Source of the DNA: a phage
Length of the DNA: 50,078 nucleotides
Reading direction: 5' to 3' (one strand)
Sequence record: NC_107631.1
A model generated the notes under the pieces. It had not been told where the DNA came from. It made no database searches and worked only from the letters and a program-made list of their open reading frames with translations. The translations under genes and the position numbers were made by a program. Within the stretch, counting starts at the first letter, position 1. Each line of letters begins with the position of its first letter. This document shows positions 3,458 through 48,193 of this stretch, piece after piece.

Positions 3458-3942
3458 AATTCCTTAACGCAATACGCGTATTCTTCAGCGCGTCGGTTCT
3501 TGAGTCCTCTAGACACTTCGCGCTTTTTGGTTTTTGGGTTGTAGTAGTATACCCATCGCCATAACTGATTGCACGCTTCCTTGTGCTTACTCTGATTTAT
3601 TAGCTTAAGCATTGTAGAAGATCCGAATGCGCCAGTACCAACGTTGAAAGTAAAACTGTACAGTGACGCGCGCATCGTTACCGGAATGTCAACCTTAACC
3701 TTCTTGTCAACGTATCGCTGAGCGACGCCGATATGTTTTATCAGCAATGCATCGCATTCTCGCTTAGTGTATTTCTTACCAGGTATGACGTCAGGCCCGG
3801 TTATTCCGCTGCATACGGTAGGGACTCCGGCGATATCGTAATAAACCTCGTATTCTATACCTTCGATCCGTTCCAGTAGGGTGGGTGTCAACGTCAAAGC
3901 GGCCCCGATGGATGCGCCTATAACGTTATTTTTTAAACTCAT
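3454..3942 (-). CDS. SAR endolysin (GH24 lysozyme, P21 R21-like)
   Basis: Gly/Ala-rich N-terminal SAR segment; [14 protein letters not shown] matches the E-D-T catalytic region of P21-type lysozymes (LEG..YKDIVGVWTVC); GGGGAG RBS. Confidence 0.85.
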
Positions 3943-4157
3943 TATCTCCCCCTAATCTTAAGCGCCTTATTTAGATCGCCATCGTTTAACGCTTCCTGAA
4001 TAGCCTTACTATCGCGATACTTCCAGTACGCTCCCCATGCACCAAAAAGCAGAAAGCAAATAAATGTAGCGCCAGCAATATAAAGCTGCCCTGTCGCCGC
4101 CCCTACCAACGAAGCACCGCCCGTGCTTGACGTAGCTGCTGTTAAAAATTCTTTCAT
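3942..4157 (-). CDS. holin (small, pinholin-like)
   Basis: Start moved to Met22 (ATG) because the track start is TTG; Gly-rich transmembrane segment; stop overlaps endolysin start (TAATG). Confidence 0.6.
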
Positions 4158-4191
4158 AATCTCACCATATATTTTTTGAACAAGTGAATCG

Positions 4192-4220
4192 ATTTTAACC
4201 TTCAAATTTACTTGATACAA
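4192..4220 (-). promoter_or_regulatory. sigma70-type promoter for the lysis cassette
   Basis: On minus strand TTGTAT-N17-TAAAAT immediately upstream of the holin. Confidence 0.4.
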
Positions 4221-4275
4221 CGCAAAAAGGCCAGCATGTAAATCATGCCAGCCTGTAAGGTGATGAATGATATTG

Positions 4276-4452
4276 TTAATCTATCGCAATAAATTCCAGA
4301 TAGCTACCGTTCAGAGGCGCTTGGATTGCTGAACATCGCCCGTCGTAAATCTCAAATAATCCCCCACCGAAATCATAACCAACACTATAGATCTGATTTA
4401 CGCGGAATGGAAGTGTTTGGGAGTCATTTCGGATGCACTTAACTAGCTTCAT
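4276..4452 (-). CDS. hypothetical small protein (about 58 aa), not in ORF track
   Basis: ATG 7 nt after AGAGG; served by a dyad-motif promoter; coordinates approximate. Confidence 0.4.
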   Translation of the reverse strand: MKLVKCIRNDSQTLPFRVNQIYSVGYDFGGGLFEIYDGRCSAIQAPLNGSYLEFIAID

Positions 4453-4481: not shown

Positions 4482-4525
4482 ACTATGCCCGAATCCATTC
4501 GGGCGTTTTTATCAATTAGTGCGAT
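4482..4525 (-). promoter_or_regulatory. dyad-motif middle promoter (degenerate site)
   Basis: TCGCAC-TAA-TTGATAA on minus strand; CATAGT hexamer 28 nt downstream, inside inverted repeat GCCCGAATGGATTCGGGC. Confidence 0.45.
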
Positions 4526-5667
4526 CCTGTCATTTCTGGACGATAGATGAAGCGACCTATTTCCCCAAACTGCTTATCGTAAACAATTACAGCCGCCTGG
4601 CGATATGAGCGCCACCCTCCGCGCGCTGCGTATGCGTCTTTCGCGCCTAACTGACCGTGCACTTCATCAATACCTAACGAGTGTTCAGTGATTGTCTGAT
4701 GATGCCAGTGACCGCTATGAGTATACACATACTTACTCTCTCCGAAGTCTGCACGGAAGTCTGCCGCCATCGCTGCAAGTCGCGTGTCTGCCTTTTTCAT
4801 AGTGTGCCCGTGAGTGTATCCCAATAAGGTGTTTCCCCAGCGAGTCTTATGCAGAATCATAGGACTAACGTCAACGAATACTCGCGGCTCGTCTTCATAA
4901 TATGCAGACATTGCAGCTCGCAGCCAAATCATCCCAGACTGATCGTGGTTCCCTTCGATAACCTGGACCTCGACTTCTTTGTGTTTCATAAGCATTTTGT
5001 CGATGGCGCGACGCACCGAACGAATCGCTACATGCACCAATTTCGCATATCGTGAATCCTGATCTAGAACGTGACCACTTGCCGGGGTAACAGCGTCAAG
5101 GCCGTCAGAGTGAAGGAAGTCGCCGCCGATTAACAGAACAGCCTTCTCTGCGTTCGGCGCAATATCGATCGCGTAATTAAAGAAGTCGCTAAGCACTTTT
5201 TCCGCTACGTCGGTGGAATAGTTCTCACCGCATTCATGCTTATGAGCAAGCGCGCCAATATGAAGATCGAATACCGGATAGAGTGCCAGCTTACCCATCG
5301 CCGTAGTAAGCCCTTGTGAGGTTAGTAGTTCAGTTGGCTTTGCTCGAGGCAGGTCTTCACAGAATGCAATACGCGCCGCTTCCATCATTGCCGCAATCTT
5401 CTCACGGTCCTGATCGGTCTTAACCCAGCGAACTACCTCGGTCCCATCTCCGCGAATCATCGTTGATGTACCTTTTACCATGAATCCTTCCGGCACGTTT
5501 TTAGCAACATGCTCGTTACCGTGGAAGTGGCCTTCTTTTGCAAGTTTTGCGTGACGCGCCTCGACAGTGCGAATGTGCATACCGTACTTTTCCGCGATCT
5601 CGCGAAGTGTAAGTCCGTTCATGCGCTCTTCGACAAGTTGTTCGGTAGTGATTTTAGCTTGTGACAT
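4516..5667 (-). CDS. calcineurin-like metallophosphoesterase with N-terminal HTH domain
   Basis: N-terminal HTH-like segment (LTLREIAEKYGMHIRTV); phosphoesterase motifs DLH, GGDFLHSDG, GNHD, GHT. Confidence 0.7.
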   Translation of the reverse strand: MSQAKITTEQLVEERMNGLTLREIAEKYGMHIRTVEARHAKLAKEGHFHGNEHVAKNVPEGFMVKGTSTMIRGDGTEVVRWVKTDQDREKIAAMMEAARIAFCEDLPRAKPTELLTSQGLTTAMGKLALYPVFDLHIGALAHKHECGENYSTDVAEKVLSDFFNYAIDIAPNAEKAVLLIGGDFLHSDGLDAVTPASGHVLDQDSRYAKLVHVAIRSVRRAIDKMLMKHKEVEVQVIEGNHDQSGMIWLRAAMSAYYEDEPRVFVDVSPMILHKTRWGNTLLGYTHGHTMKKADTRLAAMAADFRADFGESKYVYTHSGHWHHQTITEHSLGIDEVHGQLGAKDAYAARGGWRSYRQAAVIVYDKQFGEIGRFIYRPEMTGSH

Positions 5668-11607: not shown

Positions 11608-13473
11608 ATGGCTTTATATAGACGCGGTACTGCATCAATGGATGCAGACGGCACGGTTCACGGAACCGATACAAAATGGAAAGATCAGCTTGCTCTGATT
11701 CGAGTCGGTGCAACTATCGTATTCCTGGAGCAACCGATTAAGCTGGCGGTAATCAGCGATATTGTGAGCGATACGGAAATGAAGGCTATCTCTACGGATG
11801 GTCAGACTGCAGCTGACGGAAAGTATGTGATCTTGCTTAGCGATTCACTAACCGTTAACGGGCTTGCGCAAAACGTTGCTGAGACGCTTCGATACTATCA
11901 AAGCAAAGAGACTGAGATCGCGGCAGCTATAGACCTGATAAATCAGCTTGACATGACTAAACTTGAGCAAATAGTTACTGAAGTGAATCAGGCAAAATCT
12001 GATGCTCAAGATGCGCAAGGTCAGGCTGAACTAGCTCGTGATGCCGCTAACGCTGCGCGCGATGAAACCAACTCAATCAAGGACCAGGCTCAGGGAATTG
12101 TTGACGGCGCTGTCGATGGAATTAATGCCGCAAAAGACCAAGCGATCACAGATGTAGGCGCTAAAGAATCTGCGGCGGTTACGCACATCGACACGGAAGA
12201 GGCGGCAGCTATTCAGGCAATCAATGACGCTAAAGGCGATCTATCCGGGTATGTTAATGACGCTCAAACAGCTGCACAAACAGCCACATCTGCAAAGAAC
12301 GATGCTCAGTTGGCGCGTAATGATGCTGTTAGCTCAAAAGATGCGGCGGCGGTAAGTGCTCAGGAAGCGAAAGACGCAGCAAATAGCATTAATGCTGAAA
12401 ACCTTTTAACTAAGGATGGAAACCTGGCAGGTTTAACAGATCCAGAGGAGGCAAGGTACAACCTAAAACTGACTGAGTGGGGGTTGTTAAGTGACGCATC
12501 ATCTGCTGGTGTTTCTGATATAAACGCAATATCTGTAAACTGCAATTACAGCGTGCCACCAAAAAACACCAATAATTTAACTGGTACATATCCATTTGAG
12601 CACGTTCAAAATCTTGATGATGGTTGGTTAATTCTTGAAACACGTATGCATCCAGATCCTAATTATGGAATTCAGAGGGCTACTCAATTCACAGGCAATT
12701 CCGCTGGCTCCGTTAGCGTGAGATGCAAGATCAATGGAGCTTGGGGGAATTGGGGTCAGGAAAGAGGATCGCATGGATATCTTGCAAACGTAATACTTGA
12801 CAGAGCAACATTTAGATCTGTCGGTACTGCTTCTGGAGGTGCTGGGGCGTTGGTTGGCGGTGGAGTTGAGGGTGGTGCGTATCAACAATGGAGAGATAGA
12901 GCTACTGGATTACTGGTTGAGGCAATTGCGAAAGATGCAGCGGTATCAATATTCAAGAGTGTAATGTGGGGCCAAGATTGGATTGGGGGTCTTGATTGTG
13001 TTCTATGGGGTGCTGGCAGTAAGGAGATGAAACTTTATACTGGTGGCGCTGAGTTCACTTTTAATTACGCAGGAGTAGCTACAGCAGCTCAGTGGACAAG
13101 TACATCTGATATCAGGCTGAAAACAAATCTTAATAAAATTGAGTCGGCAACCGAGAAAGTGGAGAGGCTCGTTGGTTATACTTACTACAAGAGAAACACC
13201 ATTGAAGAAACTGAAAACTCAAGGTATGAGATTGAGGCTGGTATAGTAGCTCAGGATCTTGAAATGGTTCTACCTGAGGCTGTTCTTAGCATAAACAGCA
13301 AAGGTGAACTCGACCCTAAAAGAGAGGGTATTAAGAGTGTCAATTATGCTGGAGTTGCGGCACTTCTTGTTAACGCATTTAACGAGCAGAAGAAAAGGTC
13401 TGATGAAATGGAGTTAAAAATAAATGAAATGATAAAGGAGATTGACGAAATCAAAAAACTATTGAACAAGTAA
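11608..13473 (+). CDS. tail fibre protein with C-terminal intramolecular chaperone (peptidase S74-like) domain
   Basis: N-terminal coiled/repeat region rich in D-A-Q/A-A-N-A; C-terminal SDIRLKTNL..VGYTYYKRN..EAGIVAQDLE resembles the self-cleaving chaperone domain of T5 pb1/endosialidase fibres. Confidence 0.8.
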   Translation: MALYRRGTASMDADGTVHGTDTKWKDQLALIRVGATIVFLEQPIKLAVISDIVSDTEMKAISTDGQTAADGKYVILLSDSLTVNGLAQNVAETLRYYQSKETEIAAAIDLINQLDMTKLEQIVTEVNQAKSDAQDAQGQAELARDAANAARDETNSIKDQAQGIVDGAVDGINAAKDQAITDVGAKESAAVTHIDTEEAAAIQAINDAKGDLSGYVNDAQTAAQTATSAKNDAQLARNDAVSSKDAAAVSAQEAKDAANSINAENLLTKDGNLAGLTDPEEARYNLKLTEWGLLSDASSAGVSDINAISVNCNYSVPPKNTNNLTGTYPFEHVQNLDDGWLILETRMHPDPNYGIQRATQFTGNSAGSVSVRCKINGAWGNWGQERGSHGYLANVILDRATFRSVGTASGGAGALVGGGVEGGAYQQWRDRATGLLVEAIAKDAAVSIFKSVMWGQDWIGGLDCVLWGAGSKEMKLYTGGAEFTFNYAGVATAAQWTSTSDIRLKTNLNKIESATEKVERLVGYTYYKRNTIEETENSRYEIEAGIVAQDLEMVLPEAVLSINSKGELDPKREGIKSVNYAGVAALLVNAFNEQKKRSDEMELKINEMIKEIDEIKKLLNK

Positions 13474-13964: not shown

Positions 13965-14612
13965 TTATTCGAAGTTGGTGATTGATTGAGATTGTACAGG
14001 CTTCGCGCTAGTTGCTTCAACCTGTTTTTTCTGTTCCGGTTGCGCCGGGCGAATACCACGAGCTTTACCGATCTCAAACTTAGCCTTAAGTGCGTTGTAG
14101 TGATCCTGAATGATTGACTTGCTTGCCGTGTCCGTCTGGCGGTAAGCGTTAGCCCATACCTCTTTCAGTGATTCGATATCTTCACACGCATCAAGTTCTT
14201 TTTTCCAGTCCTTGACAGATTTCACTGCAAGCTGAGCATCGTCATCACTCTGGCTAATCCCCAGCGCTGCGGCTAATGAGTAACGTCGAGCATACGTCAT
14301 TGCGGAACCTACGCCTTGCGGATCGCGTTTTGCAATCGGCATCATCATGAAGAATTTGGCCCACTGCCCGGATTTATGAATCAACATCGTCTCAAGATGG
14401 AAGGTCGTTTCCGTGCTTGTATCAAGCATTGATTGCAAGATCATAATATCGTTGTCGGTGAGCGCCGGGCTAACGGCTGACATCATTGCATCAAGGGTTG
14501 CGTATGAATTTTTCAGGTGGTTGTTTTTTGCGTCCTTCTTTGCTTTAGCAAATTTGTTGCGAGCATTGAACAGTGCTGGAAGGATTTCGTTCGTTTCTGG
14601 TGATAATTGCAT
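13965..14612 (-). CDS. erf: ERF-family single-strand annealing recombinase
   Basis: Similar to P22 Erf: N..K.AKAKKD..NSYATLDAMMSAVSPAL and AMTYARRYSLAAALGI; start moved to Met12 with conserved ACCAATCAGGAG RBS. Confidence 0.75.
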   Translation of the reverse strand: MQLSPETNEILPALFNARNKFAKAKKDAKNNHLKNSYATLDAMMSAVSPALTDNDIMILQSMLDTSTETTFHLETMLIHKSGQWAKFFMMMPIAKRDPQGVGSAMTYARRYSLAAALGISQSDDDAQLAVKSVKDWKKELDACEDIESLKEVWANAYRQTDTASKSIIQDHYNALKAKFEIGKARGIRPAQPEQKKQVEATSAKPVQSQSITNFE

Positions 14613-14686
14613 CTTTACTTCTCCTGATTGGTGTATGAGGTGCATTATAACACCTCATTAATTATTTGTTTAGCTATTTGTGCCGT

Positions 14687-15751
14687 TTACTTATTTTGGT
14701 AACGCACCCATGATGGCGTTTCAAGTTCGATCTCGCTTGCGTCGCCAGCGTACCCAGGCCAAACATCCATTTCAGAGCAAGCCTTGTAAGTGTGGACTAC
14801 GCTAATGTACTGGTTACGACCGATCCTGATTTGCTCCATAGTCATACGGTAAGCAAGTGCGATGTAAGGCTCTTTTTTCTCCTGCGTAAGCAATCGAACT
14901 ACGATCGGGATATCTTCCGGAAAGTTTCCTTCAAAAGCGCCAGCCTGGATTGCACGTCGTAGCAGGTCATGCTGCAAGGCCATTTTTAGATAATACCCGT
15001 GATTGTATGCCAGTCTAGGGAACTCTAACGGGTTAGCGCTCATCGTGGTTTTGAAGTCAGTGATAATTAGCGCTTCAGGGAAAATAACGTCTTCAAATAC
15101 CGGATCGCCGTTCTCATCATAACCAGTCAGCACGCGGCCTGGAACATTCTCTTTGTAGTCCAGATGGTCAAGACGAACCTTAACTTTGACGCCGGATATC
15201 TCACCGAAGATTGAGATCTCACGCTGAGCCGTCTCGCTATTGATGCACGCTTCATGATCCTGATTTTGCTCAAGGATTGCCCTCATCTTCATGCAGGCGT
15301 CGTATTTGTCAGCGTCAACCAATTTCTTTCCTTCAGCGCGCGCCTCGGCCTCAGCAATTAGTTCAATCAGATATTGGACGTTAAGGTCTTCACCACAATC
15401 AACCATCATTTTGATGAGGTCCGGGTACTGCTTACCGGATGTACCTTTCAGGCCGAATGATTTTAATTTAGATGCCAGCGCCGCCTGCGAAGTAATCAGA
15501 TCCTTAAACTCTGCCGGAGCCGGGCAACGGGCATACGATGCAGTAAACAGATCTCGGCTCTCAAAGTTGGTATGCGACTGAGTGCCGAACTCCAGCGCTT
15601 TCGTTGTCTCATTCTTCTTGAATCGCCAGTTAGCCGGGCAAGTTTGATAGATTTCTGCAAGGCTCGATCCGCTCACATACTCTGCCGCCCAACCTTCGTT
15701 GCTATGATACTCGTCATTAGAAAGCTGACTTGATGTGAATACCTGGAACAT
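14687..15751 (-). CDS. PD-(D/E)XK exonuclease (recombination partner of ERF)
   Basis: IITDFKTT motif of RecB/Cas4-type nucleases; first gene of an exo-erf-ssb operon; AGGAG RBS. Confidence 0.6.
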   Translation of the reverse strand: MFQVFTSSQLSNDEYHSNEGWAAEYVSGSSLAEIYQTCPANWRFKKNETTKALEFGTQSHTNFESRDLFTASYARCPAPAEFKDLITSQAALASKLKSFGLKGTSGKQYPDLIKMMVDCGEDLNVQYLIELIAEAEARAEGKKLVDADKYDACMKMRAILEQNQDHEACINSETAQREISIFGEISGVKVKVRLDHLDYKENVPGRVLTGYDENGDPVFEDVIFPEALIITDFKTTMSANPLEFPRLAYNHGYYLKMALQHDLLRRAIQAGAFEGNFPEDIPIVVRLLTQEKKEPYIALAYRMTMEQIRIGRNQYISVVHTYKACSEMDVWPGYAGDASEIELETPSWVRYQNK

Positions 15752-15782
15752 TGCGTTTATCTCCTTTGTTTACGATGAGTCA

Positions 15783-15810
15783 ATTATAGCCATTAACAGC
15801 GTTTAGTCAA
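15783..15810 (-). promoter_or_regulatory. strong sigma70 promoter for the recombination operon
   Basis: On minus strand TTGACT-N16-TATAAT. Confidence 0.55.
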
Positions 15811-16029
15811 TAGAATGCATGTAATTGGCGTGTAATTGCGTGTCTATATCGCTCAAGTTACAACCAGTGTCAACGCAATCAATATCTTAGCCATGTTTTT
15901 ATGTGGTGTCTATTGCGTAATACTTGTAACAGCATTTTCTTAGAAATACACGGATATCCATGAATAGAATCAATATTGATTAAATTTTGAACATATATGA
16001 TAGAAATTTGACGAATCAATAAAATCACC

Positions 16030-16200
16030 TGTTACACGATAGACAACTGTTACACAGCAATAATTATATATATAAAGCTAAAATTAAATATTATCTATCT
16101 ATATATATTATATAGAGTTTTTATCATATCCCTCTGCGGTCGGGTGGGGTGGATTTTGTAACACCCGTTCCGGTTACAAAAATAGACACCTGTTACACGA
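16030..16200. repeat. AT-rich block with (TA)n runs and repeated CTGTTACAC / GTGTTACA sites
   Basis: ATAGACA(A/C)CTGTTACAC occurs twice plus inverted TTTGTAACAC; TATATATA runs; divergent intergenic region. Confidence 0.6.
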
Positions 16201-16219
16201 AAAAATTGTAATCGCACTA

Positions 16220-16248
16220 TTGCAATAAAAGTAAATGCGACATACAAT
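16220..16248 (+). promoter_or_regulatory. sigma70 promoter for the lipoprotein gene
   Basis: TTGCAA-N17-TACAAT. Confidence 0.5.
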
Positions 16249-16277
16249 GCAATCACACTAACGACGAGGACATACAA

Positions 16278-16505
16278 ATGAAAAAGTTAATCACCATTAT
16301 CGCTGCGGCATTCATCCTGACTGGTTGCTCATCAATGCCTGAGCGAACTTGTACGGCAATTTATGAATCAGGAGGCTCAGAGTACTCGGTTTACGTTTTT
16401 GGATCTAAGATGCGAGGAGAGGAGATGCTATTGCGTGCTGGATACCCATTCTCCTTCAACTACGTATCAGAGAAAAACTTCAAGTCTCACGATTGCTCGA
16501 TATAA
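16278..16505 (+). CDS. small lipoprotein, candidate Cor/Llp-like superinfection-exclusion protein
   Basis: Signal peptide with lipobox LTGC; two further Cys; 75 aa; divergently placed beside tail-tip genes, as for T5 llp and T1/phi80 cor. Confidence 0.55.
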   Translation: MKKLITIIAAAFILTGCSSMPERTCTAIYESGGSEYSVYVFGSKMRGEEMLLRAGYPFSFNYVSEKNFKSHDCSI

Positions 16506-21063: not shown

Positions 21064-21663
21064 TTAACTCATATCCTCGGCATAGGAACCTGCTGAGAAA
21101 GTTGCGCCACCTCCGGCGCGATATCCATACGGGACCGGGAGAGGGTATCCCGCCGCCGTCGTATTGACAGCGCCGCCGAACGCGTACGAAGGTTTATTCT
21201 TGCTTGATTGAACTTCAAAGTTTGCGCCACCCGGCTGCGGTGAAATCATCTGCATCACGCCGCCCAGCACCATAGCGCCGCCCATCATAAACAGAGACGA
21301 GGACATTGTGCCCATTAAAGCCAGAGACGCGCCGCCAGTATAGAATGCTGCAACCATTATTGCCGCGCCCAATACAACCTGAAATAGACCTCCTGTCTTA
21401 GAGCCAGTAGGGATCGGTACGATTCTTATCTCTTTTGCGCACTTGAATTTTTCCTCTTCATGGTGTCCCACGTTAACGCCATCCACAAATATTGCAAACT
21501 TGCTACGAGATCCTACCTCGCTTTGCATGTATTCTTTAAATCCGTCCACCTGACTGGATAGCGCCCGGATGGCTTCCGGGTAAGAATCAACAGCGTAACG
21601 GTGAAAGACGCCGAAGCGTCTCCCAAGTGAACCTGATAATTTGATTAACTTTACATCATTCAT
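21064..21663 (-). CDS. tail assembly protein (lambda gpI-like)
   Basis: Position and size; C-terminal hydrophobic Gly/Ala-rich region; start moved to Met18 because track start is TTG. Confidence 0.65.
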   Translation of the reverse strand: MNDVKLIKLSGSLGRRFGVFHRYAVDSYPEAIRALSSQVDGFKEYMQSEVGSRSKFAIFVDGVNVGHHEEEKFKCAKEIRIVPIPTGSKTGGLFQVVLGAAIMVAAFYTGGASLALMGTMSSSLFMMGGAMVLGGVMQMISPQPGGANFEVQSSKNKPSYAFGGAVNTTAAGYPLPVPYGYRAGGGATFSAGSYAEDMS

Positions 21664-22394
21664 AATTTTAGATCCTTGTGCCGAACAATTAAAACGGTGT
21701 GATCCTGATACCAACCTGAATAAATATCACGGCGTGATAGCTTTCCGAAGGCGTGATGCAAGATCTGATTATCTCCCAGGTAAATCCCTGCGTGGTTCCA
21801 TACCGGAACGTTTTGCCCTATCTGCATGATTACCATATCACCGAATGACGGGTTATTCTGATCTGTAATCTCAACGAAGCCATCTTGCTTGTAATAATCC
21901 TGATAGAGATTAATTCCGTACTCAGGTTTCCACCATTCAAAATTCAATCGGCGATCGCGCAACTCTACGCCGTGCTCTTTGTGCCACGCCATAACAAGAC
22001 CATAACAGTCGAATGATCCTAATGACCACGGACGACCAATCAGAGGTAATTTCTCTGGCTTCACAAAGCGCATATCTCCTTCCGGCACGCTAACAATAAT
22101 CCAGGTAACTTCCATCTCGTTGCACATACACGTATCGTGAGCGCTCGGTAGAGTTGTAGCACCGTCTCCGGTGTGGCTGTGTACGATTGCGATCGTGGTT
22201 GATTCTGCGTCGTCCTCAATGCAGGCGTATTGCACTGCGTCCATCATGAAGTGATTTTCAGGATCGCGATGCACGTTATCAATGCGATGGTATTTTTGCA
22301 CTCGCCCCTTTTGGGTAACTACCCCGCAGCATTCGCGGGGGTATTCTTCTTGTGCATGAGTCATGATTTCAAGTTTAATTTTTGCACTAATCAT
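21660..22394 (-). CDS. minor tail protein (lambda gpK-like: JAB/MPN plus NlpC/P60)
   Basis: JAB-type metal motif HSHTGDG..S..D; Cys-His region (CYGLVMAWH); position between gpL-like and gpI-like. Confidence 0.75.
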   Translation of the reverse strand: MISAKIKLEIMTHAQEEYPRECCGVVTQKGRVQKYHRIDNVHRDPENHFMMDAVQYACIEDDAESTTIAIVHSHTGDGATTLPSAHDTCMCNEMEVTWIIVSVPEGDMRFVKPEKLPLIGRPWSLGSFDCYGLVMAWHKEHGVELRDRRLNFEWWKPEYGINLYQDYYKQDGFVEITDQNNPSFGDMVIMQIGQNVPVWNHAGIYLGDNQILHHAFGKLSRRDIYSGWYQDHTVLIVRHKDLKL

Positions 22395-22891
22395 TTTCCG
22401 TGCCTCCAGGTAAAGCCATTTTTCATGTTAAATTCTTCCCTAGCCTTTACAGCCTCATCAAGTGAGTCATAGTAGCCTATATGAGTGTTTCCAGATGATA
22501 CCCTCCACTTTCCATTCCTGTATAAATTAACACCATTAAATCCAGAAGAATTTTTTGAGTTTTTCTTCTGGTTTTTTGCGTTAATGATAGTGTCAGCAAG
22601 TCTTAGGTTTTCTATTCTATCATCTCCAGCAATTCCATTTATATGATCTATAACCTTTCCTCCTGGTATAGATCCATTAAACATGGTCCAAATAATCCTG
22701 TGTCTGTAAAATCTTTCTCCATTTATTTTTACAATGACGTAACCATCATTCCTTTTAGTTCCAGCCGATAAGCCGAGTAACCCCGGCTTTCTCTTTGGCG
22801 CTAACTTGTAAAAAATCTCTCCGTCTCTATAAGAAAATAACTCAATGTAGTTAATCATTGATTTTTCCTCTGTAGTGAAGCGACAGCGCAA
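22391..22891 (-). CDS. HNH homing endonuclease inserted in the tail operon
   Basis: IDHINGIAGDDRIENLRL motif plus AP2-like tail; AT-rich; lies between gpL-like and gpK-like genes. Confidence 0.8.
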   Translation of the reverse strand: MRCRFTTEEKSMINYIELFSYRDGEIFYKLAPKRKPGLLGLSAGTKRNDGYVIVKINGERFYRHRIIWTMFNGSIPGGKVIDHINGIAGDDRIENLRLADTIINAKNQKKNSKNSSGFNGVNLYRNGKWRVSSGNTHIGYYDSLDEAVKAREEFNMKNGFTWRHGK

Positions 22892-23637
22892 CCGCCAAAA
22901 TCCAGTTCATTGTTTGCTCCGAATCTCAGGCGGCAGGCCGTTACCGTACCTGGGCAGAAATCCAGAGAAGGATCATCTACCGGATTATTGTCTTTGTCAA
23001 AATAACCGTTTTGCCCGTTGTATCCGCAGCCTTTCCCGGTTTTATACCATCCTCTTTGTGCAAAATAGCATACGCTTTGCGTGAGTCGAGACGGGATCAT
23101 GATGCCGTCCATATCGTAAGGTGATGTGAGATCGAACCGCGCAACACTTTTATCAACATAGTTCGGACGCTCGATATAGTATACCAGCTTACGGTAAGCT
23201 CCATCAGCGATTGAGCCATCAGAGTTAATAAGCTCACGCTGAGTTATCCAGATAGTCACCTTAGCTTGCATCAATCCGTTATATGCGCGAATCATTGCCG
23301 ACACTCTGCTATCAATATTTGCCACTGTCAACTGTGGTTTAGTCGCCTTGCCGGAACTGTCGAACGAGATACCGGATATACCGAACGGTCGCGCCCCGTA
23401 TTTCTCGCCACGGAATGTAATTTCCTTCGGCGGTAGCGTTCCAGTTTGCTGGGCCTGCATGATTTCTTCTGGAGTGTACTGGATGTTCTCTCCGTGGAAT
23501 CGGTACACCTGAGCACCGAACTTACTACCATCAACTTCAATGAGGGTGATTATCTCGCCAGGATACAGTGATTGCAGGCAGTTATGAAACAGGCTCTTTC
23601 CGCTTTCTTCATCATAAAGTTTTTTGTTTTCGCTCAT
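22855..23637 (-). CDS. minor tail protein (lambda gpL-like)
   Basis: Start moved to Met20 with AGAGGA RBS; C-terminal Cys cluster (C..C..C) as in the gpL iron-sulfur domain. Confidence 0.65.
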   Translation of the reverse strand: MSENKKLYDEESGKSLFHNCLQSLYPGEIITLIEVDGSKFGAQVYRFHGENIQYTPEEIMQAQQTGTLPPKEITFRGEKYGARPFGISGISFDSSGKATKPQLTVANIDSRVSAMIRAYNGLMQAKVTIWITQRELINSDGSIADGAYRKLVYYIERPNYVDKSVARFDLTSPYDMDGIMIPSRLTQSVCYFAQRGWYKTGKGCGYNGQNGYFDKDNNPVDDPSLDFCPGTVTACRLRFGANNELDFGGCAVASLQRKNQ

Positions 23638-23678
23638 TGATTTTTCCTCTTGTTTACCTGCAACCATTCTACAGCTAC

Positions 23679-23702
23679 AAAAAAACCCGCGCAAGGCGGG
23701 CT
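23679..23702 (-). terminator. intrinsic terminator/attenuator
   Basis: ACCCGCGCAAGGCGGGC hairpin with A7 on plus strand; near-identical to the hairpin at 21034..21060. Confidence 0.6.
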
Positions 23703-35966: not shown

Positions 35967-37535
35967 TTACCGCTTAACCATCCCGGCGAGTCGCTTCATT
36001 CTCTCGATAGGATCATCAATGGTCAGCAATTCGATGTTCGCCGCATCCATGAAGTTATCGACGATATCATCATGCGGGTGGGTGTCATCGTAAGTAAAGG
36101 CGCTATGTTCTGCGATGATTTCCGCAAGCATAGGGTGCTCTTCTGGAAGAACCACGCGACCAGCCTTAATGACTGGCTGAGCATCCATCGCTCGGGTAAC
36201 TTTATCCTTGTTACGCTGCAATGGAGTGATAGAGATCGGAGTCTTCTTCCTGAGATTCTGGATTAAGCCCGTACCGCTTGCTTTGTCTTCCACGTAGATT
36301 TTACGAAGCACGCCCATTGATTTATTGTGCCTCCATGCCTGATTGACGAAAGCTGTAAATTGCCTCTCCATATCCGGCGCTTCCCACTTTCCGCGAATGC
36401 CGTCGATAAAGTAAACCTTATCATTCTTCTTGCCCCACAAACAAAATACCGTGTAGTCGTTTAGCTCGCCTGTCTTCTGAGCGGTATCGGCAGTGATGAA
36501 TCGGTAATCATATTTACCCGGATCTGGCTCGTCAGCGTCAAGACTGCTGCCGTAATAAGTCCACCACTCTGAGTTAAACACTGAGCCACCCAGCGCGATC
36601 GGTTTCTGCTGATACTGAGAATCAAAGGTATACTGATCTGCTTCTCGTAACGCTAACAGGTCGTGAACGCTTTCCTTGCTGGGCCAAAAAGAGTAATGCT
36701 TAACGCCATCCAATTCTACATACTCAGACGATAAAACATCACGCTCAAAGTAAGGCTGCAACCAATCAGGAAGCGTCTTTCCGTATTCTTCAGTAACCAG
36801 CGCCGGGATTGAGATTTGGTCAAACTCAATACCCATCCCGCCATTCATCATGAACCAGGTTGAATCCTGAGCATGCAGTCGTTGCTGAATTGCAATAATA
36901 GGCGTCTCGTTATGCATACGACGGGATCGAATGGTGTTTTTCAATAGCATGTGCGTACGCTCACGCTTAACCTTTGAGAACATATCATCAGGCTTGTCGA
37001 TATCGTCGAGCATTACCATCCCTGAGAATCCCGGCATCATGTAGCCACCACGCGAACCAGTAATACGACCGCCAGCCGCTGCGGATATCAACTCAAACCA
37101 AACCTTTCCGTCACTATTCAGAACCTGAATCTCTTCGTCTTTAGATGTGCCGAACTTGCAGGGCCATAGCTCCTGGAATTCGTTGCTGCTGATAATCTCA
37201 CGAACGCGCTTACTGTTACGCTTCACCAGGCTGTCGGCAAACGACACGTTAAGGTTACGAATCTTTTTACACTTAAGCATTGCGTACACCGGGAGGTGGA
37301 TTGAGAATATCTCAGTTTTTGATGATCCTGGCGTTACGTTAAAGATGGTGTTACCGCGACGACCCGCAACAATCTCTTCAGCCTCATGACACAAGTAAAT
37401 GTGATGCCAGTTCATTGAGTATTTTTGCGCCTGCATAATCTGGAACCATGCCCTAATCATTCCAGAGAAGCTTGCCTCAGATATTTTCTTTATAGCCAGC
37501 TTCTCAAGATTGTTTAACTCTTCCCATTGCAACAT
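35967..37535 (-). CDS. terminase large subunit
   Basis: 522 aa; ATPase-like N-terminus and nuclease-like C-terminus (..FITADTA..DYTVFCLWG..); followed by portal. Confidence 0.85.
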   Translation of the reverse strand: MLQWEELNNLEKLAIKKISEASFSGMIRAWFQIMQAQKYSMNWHHIYLCHEAEEIVAGRRGNTIFNVTPGSSKTEIFSIHLPVYAMLKCKKIRNLNVSFADSLVKRNSKRVREIISSNEFQELWPCKFGTSKDEEIQVLNSDGKVWFELISAAAGGRITGSRGGYMMPGFSGMVMLDDIDKPDDMFSKVKRERTHMLLKNTIRSRRMHNETPIIAIQQRLHAQDSTWFMMNGGMGIEFDQISIPALVTEEYGKTLPDWLQPYFERDVLSSEYVELDGVKHYSFWPSKESVHDLLALREADQYTFDSQYQQKPIALGGSVFNSEWWTYYGSSLDADEPDPGKYDYRFITADTAQKTGELNDYTVFCLWGKKNDKVYFIDGIRGKWEAPDMERQFTAFVNQAWRHNKSMGVLRKIYVEDKASGTGLIQNLRKKTPISITPLQRNKDKVTRAMDAQPVIKAGRVVLPEEHPMLAEIIAEHSAFTYDDTHPHDDIVDNFMDAANIELLTIDDPIERMKRLAGMVKR

Positions 37536-38079
37536 TTTTCAACTCCCCTTCATTAAATGACCTTTCACACAAGTTTTCATGAATTTCTAATTTCGCTTTC
37601 GCGTATGCTGCTCTACATTCTTCCGGAGTGTCAAAATAACCAATGAATGTTACCTTGCCTTTCCTCTTAATCCTGCAATGCCATCGACCAACCCTTTTCT
37701 CAAAATATCCACCAGCAATATCATTGCAATCTCTATTCTGCTGATTCCTCATCGCGTCAGTTTCTTGCAGGTTTTTTACTGCATTGTTTTGTCTGTCACC
37801 ATCAATGTGATCTATTTTTTCAGGCCATACCCCATAATGAAGGAACCACACCACGCGATGAGCAAAAAACCTCCTACCCCTACTACCGCGCTGACCTCTA
37901 AAATAACCGTCTTTAGTAACCTCCCTGAATGCGACGGAGTTTTCCTTATTCCTATGAAACATGTTCTTAAATCTCAATGATGTAGGTGATGATTCGTCGT
38001 AATATACGTGATCCAACAACCACGCCTCATCATCTGCACTTACTTCTCTTGCTAATCCTGTGTTCATAGTCAAACCCAT
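37504..38079 (-). CDS. HNH endonuclease between terminase subunit genes
   Basis: IDHIDGDRQNNAVKNL motif and AP2-like tail; overlaps the large terminase start. Confidence 0.75.
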   Translation of the reverse strand: MGLTMNTGLAREVSADDEAWLLDHVYYDESSPTSLRFKNMFHRNKENSVAFREVTKDGYFRGQRGSRGRRFFAHRVVWFLHYGVWPEKIDHIDGDRQNNAVKNLQETDAMRNQQNRDCNDIAGGYFEKRVGRWHCRIKRKGKVTFIGYFDTPEECRAAYAKAKLEIHENLCERSFNEGELKNVAMGRVKQS

Positions 38080-38107
38080 AAAATGTTACCCATCCGTGGG
38101 TAAGATA

Positions 38108-38632
38108 CTACAGCAATCCAATAACCTTGTCTACCGCGTCCTTCATTGCATCCTCAGTAGTGGCGACCACTGTCGATGCGGAGGCTGACGAGTTTTCGAT
38201 ATTTATTGAGGCTGGCTTATCGATTCCGAGATCCTTACCGATAAAGGAGGCATTAATAACACCGTTGGCGGCAAGCTGAAATTTTTGCTCGTTGATTACG
38301 GATTCCACGAACTCCATAACCTCACTGTATTCTTCCTCACGCTTCCACTTAATGATTGCGGCCTCGCTTGCACCGATAAATAGTCGGTATCCGGTCCAGG
38401 TGAAGACGCGCGGCTTATGAACAAGCGATTCATAAACGCCACCCTGAAAGCTGGCTGATTCTGACGCCTTTATCGCATTGTCTTCAGCCCATTCGAAATA
38501 CTTAACTGACAGATCGAATAGTTGCTCAGGCGTCATTGCCCGGTTCTTCGCAAGAACAGTGCCGAACTTTTTCTTGTATAGCTCTTTGAAATTACCTCCC
38601 TGAACAACGGGGGCGTTCTTAGGTTCACTCAT
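38108..38632 (-). CDS. putative terminase small subunit
   Basis: Position upstream of the large terminase; start moved to Met9 with AGAGGG RBS. Confidence 0.45.
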   Translation of the reverse strand: MSEPKNAPVVQGGNFKELYKKKFGTVLAKNRAMTPEQLFDLSVKYFEWAEDNAIKASESASFQGGVYESLVHKPRVFTWTGYRLFIGASEAAIIKWKREEEYSEVMEFVESVINEQKFQLAANGVINASFIGKDLGIDKPASINIENSSASASTVVATTEDAMKDAVDKVIGLL

Positions 38633-38649
38633 AAATCCATCCTCTTTGT

Positions 38650-38666
38650 TTAACATTTAGTGCTAT
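38650..38666 (-). promoter_or_regulatory. dyad element just upstream of the putative TerS RBS
   Basis: TTAACAT-TTA-GTGCTAT on plus strand; TGGTAAAAT extended -10-like sequence adjacent on minus strand. Confidence 0.4.
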
Positions 38667-41066: not shown

Positions 41067-41174
41067 GTTAGCATCTCCCTAAAAATAATTTTGCCACATT
41101 GATGATTGTGTGATTGATGATTAACAGGATGATAACCGTCAATACCGGATGTGCTGCAATAAATTCGTACAGGT

Positions 41175-41708
41175 TCATTCATCTACCCCGTGGGATTTTA
41201 AATGATCGTGAACGTTATCACCATAGTCAACTACAGCGTAAGTGGTTATCCCAAGCGATCTGAATAATGGAATAATTTGCGGCGAGTCATCCCAAGCCGC
41301 CAGAATGTTATCAATGCCGATCGCGCGCACCGCCTCTTCTTTCATTACCGTGTCTTTGCGGTTGTCGGTGTGCGGTCGCATGACTAAGTAATCATATCGA
41401 GCGCCGTGATGCTTAAGCCATAACTCAGATGCGTAACGCACCTCATCACTTCGCCCGGTTAAAATTATTACATGATATCCAGCGGCAAACATAGAGTTCA
41501 TCACATCGATCGTGCTTTGGATAGGGTTGTCAAATATTGCCGCGCGGTTAAACTCGGACCAGCTTTCAGTCAAGTGCAAATCCTTTGTCGGCAGCAGGTG
41601 AAGTCGACCAGAACCATCGCTAAGTGTCCCGTCAAAGTCAAAGATTGCCACGCGGCGCGTGCCGAGAAACAGGTTGATTGTCTGGCCCCAAATTGTGATT
41701 TTATCCAT
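41175..41708 (-). CDS. HAD-family phosphatase, T4 Pnk 3'-phosphatase domain-like
   Basis: VAIFDFDGTLSD and NP..GYHVIILTGRS match the T4 Pnk phosphatase motifs FDVDGTL and GYQIVVVSGRES. Confidence 0.65.
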   Translation of the reverse strand: MDKITIWGQTINLFLGTRRVAIFDFDGTLSDGSGRLHLLPTKDLHLTESWSEFNRAAIFDNPIQSTIDVMNSMFAAGYHVIILTGRSDEVRYASELWLKHHGARYDYLVMRPHTDNRKDTVMKEEAVRAIGIDNILAAWDDSPQIIPLFRSLGITTYAVVDYGDNVHDHLKSHGVDE

Positions 41709-44465: not shown

Positions 44466-44509
44466 ATTATACCAGTCAGGACAAATCCCCTTTTAACAAT
44501 TCGTGCTAT
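44466..44509 (-). promoter_or_regulatory. dyad-motif middle promoter
   Basis: ATAGCAC-GAA-TTGTTAA then TGgTATAAT 28 nt downstream inside inverted repeat GGGGATT..AATCCCC. Confidence 0.6.
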
Positions 44510-44976
44510 TTGGTAAGATACTTCACGTTACTACCAGCAACCTCATTCCAGCCGTCATCAAAGAACACGCTGTAGCACGTTGCTGAGCGCTGTCGAATCT
44601 TCGATACGGTTCGCCACACTTTACGCCCCGAGTAACCAGTCAGCACACGCATCCCTGGCAATAACTCACCCGACTTTCTCACCTTAATAGCCACATCAGA
44701 ATCAAGCTCGAACGACTCAAGATAGACCGGGTTAATCATATTCCACATACGGCGCTCTTCGTGCTCATCTGCCCACTCGCAGCCATTGTTCGTCTTGATA
44801 GATCCAATGAAGCAACCCAGTTTTTCAGTAAGTGAGTCTGCGCGGTATGAGTTGATATCGATGACCGTGTAGTGGCTGTACATATGCCAGTGCGATCCGG
44901 TTTTGTGCTCAAACGCGAAGAATGACATTTCGCCATCAATCTCATCTTTAGCCAGAAATACGGTAATTGTCGCCAT
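44506..44976 (-). CDS. hypothetical protein
   Basis: 156-aa ORF. Confidence 0.5.
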   Translation of the reverse strand: MATITVFLAKDEIDGEMSFFAFEHKTGSHWHMYSHYTVIDINSYRADSLTEKLGCFIGSIKTNNGCEWADEHEERRMWNMINPVYLESFELDSDVAIKVRKSGELLPGMRVLTGYSGRKVWRTVSKIRQRSATCYSVFFDDGWNEVAGSNVKYLTK

Positions 44977-44978
44977 GA

Positions 44979-45173
44979 TTAAGCCTCAGCAAAGTAAGTG
45001 TTAAAGCCTTTGAGTTTGTAGTCGCTACCTACGCGCACAACGTTCCAGGCAAGGCCCGAGTGATATGCAACCATATCCTCAAGGTCGATCGTGATTTCGG
45101 TTCCTTTCTTGAACAGACCCTTTTCATGAGTTGAGTCGCGCTGAACAACAACCACATCAATTTGAGTTTCCAT
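44979..45173 (-). CDS. hypothetical small protein
   Basis: Start moved to Met23, preceded by GAGGAAACGAAG, identical to the RBS of the gene at 46658..46828. Confidence 0.45.
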   Translation of the reverse strand: METQIDVVVVQRDSTHEKGLFKKGTEITIDLEDMVAYHSGLAWNVVRVGSDYKLKGFNTYFAEA

Positions 45174-45205
45174 CTTCGTTTCCTCTGTATCGTGTCGATG
45201 AGAAG

Positions 45206-45249
45206 ATAATACCCGATCCGCTCGATCGGGCTTTAACAAAAAGTGCTAT
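45206..45249 (-). promoter_or_regulatory. dyad-motif middle promoter (cassette family A)
   Basis: ATAGCAC-TTT-TTGTTAA then TATTAT 28 nt downstream after inverted repeat CCCGATC..GATCGGG. Confidence 0.55.
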
Positions 45250-46060
45250 TCCATTCGCTAATTTTTGGAGGCTTTACAGATTCAACACAGTTCTTCAATA
45301 TCGCACACCTTTCGGCAAGTATGTCTGATTTGCTGCCACCTTTGGAAAGGCATTGATCTACAGCTTGCTTAACGTCATCAGTATCAATCCACTTATCCTT
45401 GTGGATACTCCTCCTGCAAGCCTCAATTGTCACTACCTTATTTATGGCAAGGTACTTAGGAACGTTGCAAGCCAGGTTAGTGCTATCTGCTGAGTTTAGA
45501 GGGTAGTTACCTAAAACTCTTCCATCAAGCATCCTTAGCCCATGCAGTTTTACCTCAACATTAGATTCCTTAATGGCTGAAAAAGCCTCACTTATCCTTT
45601 GCTTCCACCTGGCGGATCTGACTGTTGCAAATTCTCCAGAAGATCCCATGCATACCCATTCCCATTTTTCACATAGACTTATCAGTCTGCTTATTGGCTC
45701 GTGCATATGCCACACCGGAGCTGCCTTACTCTTTAGATCTGAAGGCAACTGAGATATGAGCTTATCATTATCCTCGGCACTGCCAGTTATGTCATCCGGG
45801 ATAACAAAGAATCTCAATTTTGGGTTGTCAAACCAGTCAGGAAGGAAGTTGCAATAAAACTCTCTCCAGTCTTGATTCTTCCCGCTCTTCCACTTTGAGA
45901 ACGCCCCATTATCTATGCATACAGTGTCAGCCGCATCAAAGGCTAATTTTATCTGATCAGGTCGCTCGAATGATACGAATGCACCGCTTCCACGGTGCGC
46001 GATTCGTGCAATCCTTCCCCTATCTCCCCATATTGGAGATCCGTGAAAGTGAATTGTCAT
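45233..46060 (-). CDS. DpdA-like DNA-guanine transglycosylase (TGT family), putative
   Basis: Local matches to TGT catalytic motifs: CIDNGAFS vs LTDSGGFQ, FVIPDD vs MIFDEC, SADSTNLACNVP vs GIDMFDCVMP; overlaps the start of the transporter-like gene. Confidence 0.5.
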   Translation of the reverse strand: MTIHFHGSPIWGDRGRIARIAHRGSGAFVSFERPDQIKLAFDAADTVCIDNGAFSKWKSGKNQDWREFYCNFLPDWFDNPKLRFFVIPDDITGSAEDNDKLISQLPSDLKSKAAPVWHMHEPISRLISLCEKWEWVCMGSSGEFATVRSARWKQRISEAFSAIKESNVEVKLHGLRMLDGRVLGNYPLNSADSTNLACNVPKYLAINKVVTIEACRRSIHKDKWIDTDDVKQAVDQCLSKGGSKSDILAERCAILKNCVESVKPPKISEWNSTFC

Positions 46061-46536
46061 AGTTTAAATTTCCTCATGATAGCTATGATTATAAATGCGC
46101 CAACTGTCTTAGCTGCGAATTGAGCTAATGAAACATCAATCATTATGCTTCCGAATGCTATCATTGGGAACGCCATAGAGTCAATTGCAGCCGACACTGT
46201 ATTTGCCGGGATTGATTTGCTGTAGAAGTCACCACGCTTCAACTTGAACGTTATGGCGCTACCAGTTCCAGCAAGGATTACTGATGATACTGATGCAACA
46301 GCTATCATTCCTGCACTGGGGTCTATAATCACTGTAGCAATCCCAGCTACAAAGCAAGCTAGCATCGAATACCAGAACCCAAAATTGTGCTGTATCTTGT
46401 CCCTGATAACCATGTCTGCTGATATGATTACGAGTGCATTGATTGGGGTTGACCACACCCCAAAGTACGCTACTGACAGGTTTGCTGCAACATACAGCAA
46501 AACAAATAATACAATCATTACTGATAATTTACGCAT
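46057..46536 (-). CDS. YhhQ/QueT-family (DUF165-like) 7-deazaguanine precursor transporter, putative
   Basis: About 6 predicted transmembrane helices; F-KLKRGDFYSKSIPANTVSAAIDSMAFPMIAF aligns with E. coli YhhQ FNRLRQSRRWWLAPTASTLFGNVSDTLAFFFIAF. Confidence 0.55.
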   Translation of the reverse strand: MRKLSVMIVLFVLLYVAANLSVAYFGVWSTPINALVIISADMVIRDKIQHNFGFWYSMLACFVAGIATVIIDPSAGMIAVASVSSVILAGTGSAITFKLKRGDFYSKSIPANTVSAAIDSMAFPMIAFGSIMIDVSLAQFAAKTVGAFIIIAIMRKFKL

Positions 46537-46657
46537 ACGGCCTCCGTGGAAAAGATTGGTAGGATCTGGATGTTTGGTCTAACCTGCCTGATTCTGCTTA
46601 CGATTGATTCATCACTTAGAGGATAAAACACACCATTTACGAGCCATCCTATCCTAA

Positions 46658-46828
46658 TCATTCGTCGATCTCTCCAATATACTTAGCCTCTTTCCACTGT
46701 GAGTATGCATCTTGCTCGCTGAACCCGTAGCCAGTAAAGCCACCTCCCTGGCACATGAACCGCTTAAATTTCATGATTCCTTTGTAGCTGTCGCCGCGGT
46801 CGGTGATTTTGCATTCTTCGTTAATCAT
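46658..46828 (-). CDS. hypothetical small protein (about 56 aa), not in ORF track
   Basis: ATG preceded by GAGGAAACGAAG; coordinates approximate. Confidence 0.4.
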   Translation of the reverse strand: MINEECKITDRGDSYKGIMKFKRFMCQGGGFTGYGFSEQDAYSQWKEAKYIGEIDE

Positions 46829-46859
46829 CTTCGTTTCCTCGTTCGTTGTCGATGGGATA

Positions 46860-46903
46860 ACTATACCAAGCTATCCCGATCCAGCTTTAACAAAAAGTGC
46901 TAT
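46860..46903 (-). promoter_or_regulatory. dyad-motif middle promoter (cassette family A)
   Basis: ATAGCAC-TTT-TTGTTAA then TGgTATAGT 28 nt downstream inside inverted repeat GGGATA..TATCCC. Confidence 0.55.
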
Positions 46904-46917
46904 TTACCGTTCAGTGC

Positions 46918-47493
46918 TCACAGTCCACACTTTTCGATATGCGCTTTCATCTGGCGAACGATCTCGTTTACGTCACGAGTCATCAATTCGCTATCAGCCA
47001 GTTTACCCACATCAACCACAAACGAATCCAGGCAATCAGCCAGGCTAACTTTTTTCCGACTGCGGCGCTTCTTCACTGGAACTTCTTCGTCACTCACTGA
47101 GATGGTAACGACTCGCAACTTCTCATCGTTCATGGTTACGCTCACCTTGACCGACTTGCCGATTTTGGAGAAGTGACGAGAAACGATCGGGGTGATGAAT
47201 GATGATTTAAACTTCTCGTTAATCTCTTCCGTCTTCCCGAGCAACCAAGACTCGGCATATCCGCTAACAGCATCATCATCAGCGTCAGGGACTGACTTTC
47301 TCACTGCTGCCTCAGCCATCTGAGTAGCGTCGAATGAGAACTCGACATTCTCGCCATCACCATAAAGCTGATCGCAAGCGGCACGGATAACATCGGTCAC
47401 TTTTGCCTCCTGGCGCTTCTCAACGGTCACGCCAGATTTCTGGTAAGCCGCCTGAATTGCTGCCTGCACTGCGTCTGATTGGTAAGAACTCAT
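46918..47493 (-). CDS. hypothetical protein, first gene of the leftward accessory operon
   Basis: Start moved to Met31 with GAGGAG RBS; acidic N-terminal half, basic patch KKRRSRKK. Confidence 0.5.
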   Translation of the reverse strand: MSSYQSDAVQAAIQAAYQKSGVTVEKRQEAKVTDVIRAACDQLYGDGENVEFSFDATQMAEAAVRKSVPDADDDAVSGYAESWLLGKTEEINEKFKSSFITPIVSRHFSKIGKSVKVSVTMNDEKLRVVTISVSDEEVPVKKRRSRKKVSLADCLDSFVVDVGKLADSELMTRDVNEIVRQMKAHIEKCGL

Positions 47494-47608
47494 ATCTTTC
47501 TCCTCATTTTCAATATACACCATGATTAACATGTAACACTGTGTCTCTAATCGTAGTGTTACACGGCGACACGCTTGTGTCAAGGCTTGCGAGCCGATTT
47601 TAAGCGTG

Positions 47609-47635
47609 GTTAATCGTGTTAATCGTGTTAATCGC
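47609..47635. repeat. tandem direct repeat (GTTAATCGT)x3
   Basis: Three consecutive 9-bp units in the divergent control region, next to GTGTTACA sites. Confidence 0.7.
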
Positions 47636-47699
47636 TTTTCCCATATAAATATGAGCCGATAAAACTACTGTATATATAAACATGAATATAATAACCAGA

Positions 47700-47830
47700 G
47701 CATCCAACGATTAACATAGTAGACACGCTATACATCCATATTACAAATAATAGTATCTATATATATAAATAAAAAAAACACTTATATATTATATATATAC
47801 ATATATCTATATGTATATTATAAGGCGTAA
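47700..47830. repeat. AT-rich low-complexity block with TATATATA runs
   Basis: Extended TA-rich sequence resembling the block at about 16060-16125. Confidence 0.6.
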
Positions 47831-48161: not shown

Positions 48162-48193
48162 TCGGGCCATCAACCAATCAGGAGAATCACCAT

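Follow-up and report, generated by a model that had tools for sequence, protein, structure and literature searches.

The phage sequence record NC_107631.1 (50,078 nucleotides, one strand; this whole stretch is referred to as the window) contains three genes predicted to encode HNH endonucleases. We refer to them as HNH1 (406-891, + strand), HNH2, the copy in the tail operon (22391-22858, - strand), and HNH3, the copy at the terminase genes (37504-38079, - strand). HNH1 lies between a homolog of the Escherichia phage T1 gene ST7 and a DUF3987 gene (ST9 homolog), HNH2 between genes for gpL-like and gpK-like tail tip proteins, and HNH3 between the genes for the small (TerS) and large (TerL) terminase subunits.

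The window aligns to T1 and other Tunavirus (Drexlerviridae) genomes with ~92-95% nucleotide (nt) identity in the tail, terminase, and left-end regions, and it is ~94% identical to T1 overall. Across its whole length, it is colinear with T1, on the opposite strand. Because base 1 and base 50076 of the window adjoin on the T1 map (at T1 47029 and 47032), the window evidently is not a fragment but a complete T1-like genome, circularly permuted and with its ends placed within the ST7 homolog.

Three distant members of one nuclease family

An earlier sequence-only reading of the window had described the three genes as paralogous HNH/AP2-type endonucleases that are AT-rich relative to their neighbors. 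All three open reading frames (ORFs) exist, and database matches confirm the HNH assignment. In Pfam, HNH1, HNH2, and HNH3 match HNH_3 (PF13392) with 69.4, 60.7, and 45.9 bits, respectively (E = 2e-19, 1e-16, and 4e-12; cutoff 24.8 bits), and all three match phrog_99, “HNH endonuclease” (E = 1e-42 to 3e-47). A hidden Markov model (HMM) built from 42 family members identified exactly these three genes in a six-frame translation of the window; the same search found no further copies in other regions of low GC or variable content (15.6-16.4 kb, 44.5-46.9 kb, and 47.3-48.2 kb). The low GC content applies to every copy: 0.342 for HNH1, 0.367 for HNH2, and 0.406 for HNH3, compared with 0.452 for the genome, which corresponds to the 0.9th, 2.2nd, and 7.8th percentiles among 500-bp windows, with a local dip to 0.36. 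The lowest-GC stretches of the genome are 15600-16400 and 47350-48200 (down to 0.32), and no HNH genes occur there.

The term paralogous is appropriate only in the sense of a shared family, as the three copies have 28-41% mutual identity. Because the nearest relatives of HNH2 (49-98% identity) and HNH3 (~56%) are genes at the same sites in other phages, the three genes appear to be distant family members that were acquired independently, rather than recent paralogs.

Residues H53, D71, H72, N84, and N93 are invariant in the 42 sequences, including all three window copies, and they align to the beta-beta-alpha-metal motif (D-H ... N ... N) of I-HmuI from Bacillus phage SPO1 (PDB 1U3E). The AP2 label is less uniform. 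A Pfam AP2 search returned no match for HNH1 or HNH2 and a match below threshold for HNH3 (16.7 bits, cutoff 33.3 bits); two relatives of HNH2 at the gpL|gpK (L|K) junction, P0006 and P0007, reached 25.7-26.6 bits, also under the cutoff. For HNH2, the label is upheld by predicted structure instead of by sequence. AlphaFold2 modeled the protein with a mean pLDDT of 87.5, a fold search assigned the modeled catalytic core an I-HmuI-like fold, and the predicted C-terminus consists of a three-stranded sheet plus a helix, which is an AP2 fold. A sequence search of the PDB gave only a marginal match to I-HmuI (E = 0.11). HNH2 is thus predicted to combine an I-HmuI-like HNH core with an AP2 domain. 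The same order, an HNH domain at the N-terminus, then an AP2 fold at the C-terminus, characterizes the HNH-AP2 homing endonucleases found in phages, cyanobacteria, and protists, and this architecture is a recognised homing endonuclease class (Magnani et al. 2004, as cited in PMC10448857). T7 gp3.8-like proteins, to which the T1 annotation refers, are included in the class. The window alleles differ from known members of the class. When tblastn was run against 50,697 deposited phage genomes, nothing exceeded ~47% identity to HNH2 over its full length; in the same genomes, the highest identities were ~56% for HNH3, apart from the near-identical copy in Shigella phage S2_02, and ~45% for HNH1, apart from that in phage Eco_BIFF.

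No intron RNA was identified in the window using Rfam at gathering thresholds (no group I or group II intron match), and the three genes lie outside any intron or intein, between intact genes. I-HmuI nicks one strand. It is encoded in a group I intron and its C-terminal DNA-binding region is a helix-turn-helix, whereas HNH2 is free-standing with an AP2-like C-terminal domain. We rejected an intron-borne, I-HmuI-type element as the explanation for HNH2, given the lack of an Rfam intron in the window and an insert that consists of the ORF.

A spacer-less insertion in the tail operon

The neighbors of HNH2 are those that the sequence-only reading had proposed. The gpL-like gene (22855-23637, - strand, by tblastn coordinates; 260 aa [amino acids] from a T1-length start) matches Pfam Phage_tail_L (E = 3e-41), and the corresponding ORF that flanks HNH2 spans 22855-23694. 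The gpK-like gene (21660-22394, - strand) encodes JAB/MPN (Prok-JAB) and NlpC/P60 domains. Both proteins are full length and 100% identical to those of T1. In alignment to T1, HNH2 appears as a single clean insertion of 464 bp at the ATGA where the gpL stop codon overlaps the gpK start codon. The T1 junction reads ...GAGGAAAAATCA ATGATTAGTGCA..., and the window keeps both sides around the insert; among 16 insert-free Tunavirus loci, this junction has one substitution. The insert is the ORF alone, extending from a first ATGA (22855-22858, - strand), which joins the gpL stop to the HNH2 start, to a second ATGA (22391-22394, - strand), which joins the HNH2 stop to the gpK start.

The interval originally given for HNH2, 22391-22891, corresponds to the longest possible ORF, which begins at a TTG; the ORF stands, but its start probably does not. 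The extension at 22859-22891 (- strand) belongs to the 3' end of gpL, is ordinary gpL sequence present in T1, and is probably not translated, the TTG at 22891 not being the start. We consider the ATG at 22858 the likely start, yielding 155 aa plus a stop codon, because it forms the ATGA overlap with the gpL stop and because related contigs call the 155-aa ATG form.

Translation signals are rearranged at both ends of the insert. A GAGG Shine-Dalgarno element (22867-22870, - strand; positions -12 to -9), which the T1 annotation lists as the ribosome-binding site (RBS) of gpK (T1 23623-23626), now stands ahead of HNH2 at the same spacing as for gpK in T1. At the opposite end, the last HNH2 codons (TGG AGG CAC GGA AAA TGA, encoding W-R-H-G-K) contain GGAGG (22403-22407, - strand; positions -13 to -9 ahead of gpK), a replacement Shine-Dalgarno element with the original spacing; at this end, an element of the GAGG/AGAGG type is retained in the related genes of contigs L007, L008, L009, and L012. 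HNH2 therefore appears to take over the Shine-Dalgarno element and ATGA coupling of gpK and to supply gpK with a new GGAGG and ATGA. No sense-strand terminator was found inside the insert. HNH2 had been described as splitting the tail operon; this is true physically, but operon function should be unbroken, because the 3' end of HNH2 restores GGAGG and ATGA and the insert lacks a terminator. Free-standing homing endonuclease genes of phage T4 usually have their own expression signals and are located in intergenic spaces. HNH2, in contrast, has no spacer and is translationally coupled on both sides, an arrangement that appears to be new. It would show how a selfish gene can occupy a stoichiometry-sensitive tail operon with translational coupling unbroken.

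The ends of the insert share a repeat of 7-8 bp, (A)ATGATTA. We rejected this repeat as a target-site duplication, since it shrinks in other contigs (the ends share only ATGAT in L007 and L035, and only ATG in L008, L009, and L012), and we read it as a constraint of the ATGA overlap. Contigs L008, L009, and L012 also have a ~70-nt spacer between gpL and the nuclease gene (L008 1893-1962, L009 2931-3000, L012 149-216), in which an inverted repeat (e.g., GATGATGGCCGGATTTTCGGCTATCAT) is followed by a G-rich RBS; the window version has no such spacer. The inverted repeat may form a regulatory hairpin that travels with the cassette.

None of 135 matching records of deposited phages contained the HNH2 insert; the best of them covered 90% of the query, split into two pieces, and no deposited phage record covered ≥80% of a 651-bp junction probe. 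Among IMG/VR loci with gpK, 20 of 22 have an uninterrupted L|K junction, and a scan of IMG/VR with HNH2 found no close relative. A collection of 5.8 billion proteins contained a few close relatives, all in ENA or Logan assemblies. Site fidelity could be assessed for those relatives with readable gene context, namely P0003 (98% identity), P0004 (72%), P0006 (53%), P0007 (50%), and P0008 (49%). All five have a Phage_tail_L gene on one side and a JAB/NlpC-P60 gene on the other, in other siphophages whose gpL and gpK are 53-77% identical to those of the window. The relatives in deposited phages, at ≤47% identity, are located elsewhere: their neighbors are a DUF3987 gene, the genes of a lysis cassette, or genes for DNA-binding proteins. 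In the identity matrix, members of same-site clades are 49-98% identical, versus 25-48% between genes at different sites. A homing lineage that is site-specific would be expected to show such a distribution. The lineage specific to the L|K junction is new, and it is unrepresented in the deposited phage genomes.

Divergence also differs between the insert and its surroundings. Between the window and another carrier genome, L006, HNH2 is 98.3% identical with a synonymous divergence (dS) of 0.055, whereas gpL is 92.4% identical (dS 0.37) and gpK is 90.6% identical (dS 0.68); the synonymous divergence of HNH2 is thus 7 to 12 times below that of both flanks. Because of this difference, the insert is estimated to be much younger than its host genomes. 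The ratio of nonsynonymous to synonymous divergence (omega) is 0.15 for the window/L006 pair of HNH2 genes and 0.10 for the L008/L009 pair, values that indicate purifying selection on the protein. The insert is AT-rich relative to its own flanks in all five carrier backgrounds.

The two remaining IMG/VR loci, L035 and L036, have a different gene at the L|K junction. In L035 (2022-2504, + strand), and likewise in L036, an unrelated 160-aa nuclease ORF is located exactly at gpL|gpK with ATGA overlaps on both sides, and gpL and gpK are 69-74% identical to those of the window. The L035 ORF, which lacks a Pfam match, contains a Cys-rich HNH-like motif and matches phrog_1035, “endonuclease VII” (E = 2e-24). 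The presence of an unrelated nuclease gene at the same junction in other contigs is also new. Between gpI and gpJ, L035 has another nuclease gene, encoded on the opposite strand (3828-4331, - strand; HNH_3, E = 2e-24), and its tail-tip operon has therefore been invaded twice. In Shigella phage ESh4 (ON528718.1, Hanrivervirus; L041 1792-2364), a homolog with 44% identity to the endonuclease VII-like gene of L035 lies between assembly proteins K and I and is annotated as “hypothetical protein”; nuclease genes of the tail-tip operon are therefore already in deposited genomes, although not annotated as nucleases. We tentatively suggest, as a possibility somewhat short of an even chance, that the gpL|gpK overlap of lambda-like Drexlerviridae tail-tip operons is a recurrent landing site for at least two unrelated nuclease families, both having evolved into spacer-less, translationally coupled cassettes that borrow the downstream RBS and encode a substitute for it in their final codons. 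If this holds, they would be selfish genes that have adapted to remain invisible at the level of operon stoichiometry, unlike ordinary intergenic homing endonuclease genes with their own signals.

The copies at the terminase genes and at the left end

HNH3, which has a weak AP2 match in addition to HNH_3, is located between TerS and TerL, with 32 nt at its 3' end overlapping TerL, in agreement with the location first proposed. TerL (35967-37535, - strand) matches Terminase_6C and is 90-94% identical in nt sequence to T1-group terminase regions. TerS (38108-38656, - strand) matches GP3_package, is P22 gp3-like, and differs from T1 in its last ~8 codons. In the HNH3 region, 592 bp of the window stand in place of 59 bp of T1. 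Beside HNH3, TerL begins with ~240 nt (37296-37535, - strand) that are ~30% diverged from T1, compared with ~7% further in, and 100% identical to S2_02. Among deposited records matching the terminase region, S2_02 is the only one that shares HNH3 (98.4% aa identity), and its copy is annotated as “putative homing endonuclease.” The 240-nt tract, together with the differing TerS end, looks like a donor-derived flank that moved with HNH3. Upstream of HNH3, the stranded sequence ATGGGTAACATTTT (38080-38093, - strand) is an apparent remnant of the annotated T1 TerL start (ATGGGAGACTTAATC). T1 and ~60 relatives with terminase regions of 90-94% nt identity do not have HNH3. The next closest relative, at 56% identity, occurs in Warwickvirus mar001J1 and is also located between TerS and TerL.

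The HNH1 allele was found only in Eco_BIFF (98% aa identity) among relatives. T1 and JMPW2 have a different HNH gene at this site (ST8 in T1, 40% identical to HNH1), and the site is empty in most other relatives. HNH1 and ~400 bp downstream of it (401-1300) are 98-100% identical to Eco_BIFF, against an upstream background of 87-92% and a decay to 94% downstream. Positions 301-400, at the 3' end of the ST7 homolog before HNH1, are only 73% identical to Eco_BIFF, and we interpret this drop as an abrupt exchange boundary upstream of HNH1.

HNH gene sets differ between Tunavirus genomes, which have two to four such genes each. In the T1 record, the HNH genes are described as “similar to phage T7 protein 3.8,” and all are members of phrog_99, a very large family. 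T1 ST8, ST15, and ST63 represent the same family and phage group as the window copies, with 33-42% identity to HNH1 and HNH2 and 28-37% identity to HNH3. ST8 shares the ST7|DUF3987 site with HNH1, whereas ST15 (after an SbcD-like exonuclease gene) and ST63 (after a polynucleotide kinase gene) are missing from the window, where the corresponding sites at 4490-4530 and 41070-41238 are empty; its other copies are instead located at L|K and TerS|TerL. Patchy HNH genes in T1-like and many other phages are already known, and “occasional repositioning of HNH nucleases” among T1-like phages was noted in a paper on phage KanT1 (PMC13164509).

Proposed homing and competing explanations

We consider it likely that each of the three ORFs represents a free-standing homing endonuclease gene from the HNH_3/AP2 family (phrog_99) and that a T1-like phage acquired each of them independently. 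They belong to this family, and the predicted fold is consistent with it; HNH2 is present or absent at one precise site, and its lineage occupies the same site across diverged hosts under purifying selection. Lateral movement is indicated by an HNH2 gene younger than its flanks and by exchange tracts at HNH3 and HNH1, though HNH2 has none. Had all close relatives shared these genes at matching positions, the sequence-only reading would have failed, but they do not: HNH2 occurs in none of the 135 records, HNH3 in one record, and HNH1 in one phage. None of the three genes appears to be needed for phage propagation. These precise, patchy insertions, with HNH2 less diverged than its flanks, support the suggestion of the sequence-only reading that the genes are recent acquisitions by homing; cleavage and homing themselves we infer.

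Phage T4 mobE and SegF/SegG and the nuclease genes of ICP1 are likewise intergenic, intronless, and patchy, and their flanking markers are co-converted, which the HNH3 and HNH1 tracts resemble (PMC2790892, PMC10448857). Nuclease genes mark exchange boundaries in phages, according to PMC10448857.

Under the homing interpretation, the HNH2 enzyme would be made late, alongside the tail proteins, during co-infection with an insert-free relative. It would bind DNA through its AP2-like domain, and its I-HmuI-like beta-beta-alpha-metal site would nick or cut the uninterrupted L|K junction (GAGGAAAAATCA|ATGATTAGTGCA) or nearby DNA. The phage's own recombination genes would then repair the break from the insert-carrying template, copying HNH2 in; by position and similarity to the T1 annotation, homologs of an exonuclease VIII gene and an Erf-like annealing gene are located at 14687-15751 and 13965-14645, respectively. 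Carrier genomes are assumed to be immune since the insertion splits the site. HNH3 (TerS|TerL) and HNH1 (ST7|DUF3987) would move by the same mechanism, with flanking DNA moving along. Immunity of carriers through mutation of the target is unsupported, as there is no carrier-specific substitution within ~480 bp of the junction. For the same reason, protection from HNH2 would rest on disruption of the site; if the enzyme recognises the junction, we assume that protection must come from the insertion itself.

Several observations weigh against homing as the explanation for HNH2. The lack of carrier-specific substitutions within ~480 bp of the junction also means that HNH2 has no co-conversion tract. 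Its low divergence could also have arisen if a mosaic segment was exchanged by ordinary homologous recombination, and the short end repeat could reflect functional constraint or microhomology recombination instead of homing. The known carrier contigs number only a handful.

A less likely explanation is that the nucleases persist chiefly because they serve as weapons or in auxiliary roles, either excluding the markers of co-infecting T1-like competitors or processing host or phage DNA. The purifying selection on the protein and the different set of two to four such genes in each Tunavirus are in keeping with this idea, and there are published examples of phage homing or intron nucleases with roles in inter-phage competition and immune evasion (e.g., PMC13096335). 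The rarity and patchiness of the genes among relatives, however, argue against a strong general benefit. No sequence feature separates this explanation from selfish homing, and the two are compatible.

It is more doubtful still that the genes are decaying or inactive passengers of ordinary mosaic recombination, moved without nuclease-driven mobility. T1-like genomes are mosaic, with identity ranging from 64% to 100% along the genome, and the missing tract and substitutions around HNH2 would be as expected of a passenger. However, the ORFs are intact, their catalytic residues are invariant, and omega is low. The HNH2 insertion is exactly one ORF and not a mosaic block, the L|K position is kept across phages with gpL and gpK of only 55-72% identity, and HNH2 is less diverged at synonymous sites than both flanks.

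The sequence-only reading had also suggested that HNH3 could act in packaging. The model for such a role would be the HNH proteins of HK97-type cos phages, which stimulate cutting by terminase; the position of HNH3 between the subunit genes, its overlap with the TerL start, and the 56% homolog at the same position in a Warwickvirus agree with such a role, but we find it highly improbable, given the absence of the gene from T1 and ~60 relatives with terminase regions of 90-94% nt identity, its membership in the same phrog_99 family as HNH1 and HNH2, and an adjoining foreign 240-nt tract common only to the other carrier. HNH3 evidently is not needed for packaging, because T1 lacks it. Compared with HK97 gp74, HNH3 is not a conserved partner of the terminase (S2_02 alone has it among matching Tunavirus records), and cos packaging is not indicated, given the P22 gp3-like TerS and the 2.8-kb terminal repeat in the T1 record. 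A P22 gp3-like TerS and a terminal repeat are features of headful, not cos, packaging, and headful packaging is established for T1. That HNH3 is not a packaging component matters for annotation.

The homing interpretation has in HNH2 a clean natural case: carrier and insert-free alleles are ~94% identical, the boundaries are exact, and the lineage can be traced to 49% identity. The putative L|K target site would be easy to test in T1, a classic tractable phage.

Two other regions of the window depart from T1. A block at 44508-46916 has no T1 counterpart, is mostly missing from S2_02, and contains ORFs of 156, 86, 275, and 159 aa. The 86-aa ORF (44979-45239, - strand) matches Pfam PF25180, “Phage antiviral trigger protein Gp54” (E = 7e-35). 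The 275-aa and 159-aa ORFs have no Pfam match, and the latter looks like a multi-pass membrane protein. In the side tail fibre gene (11608-13473, 621 aa), the C-terminal third (12433-13467) has no nt match in T1 or S2_02, and the protein terminates in a Peptidase_S74 intramolecular chaperone domain; this points to exchange of a receptor-binding module.

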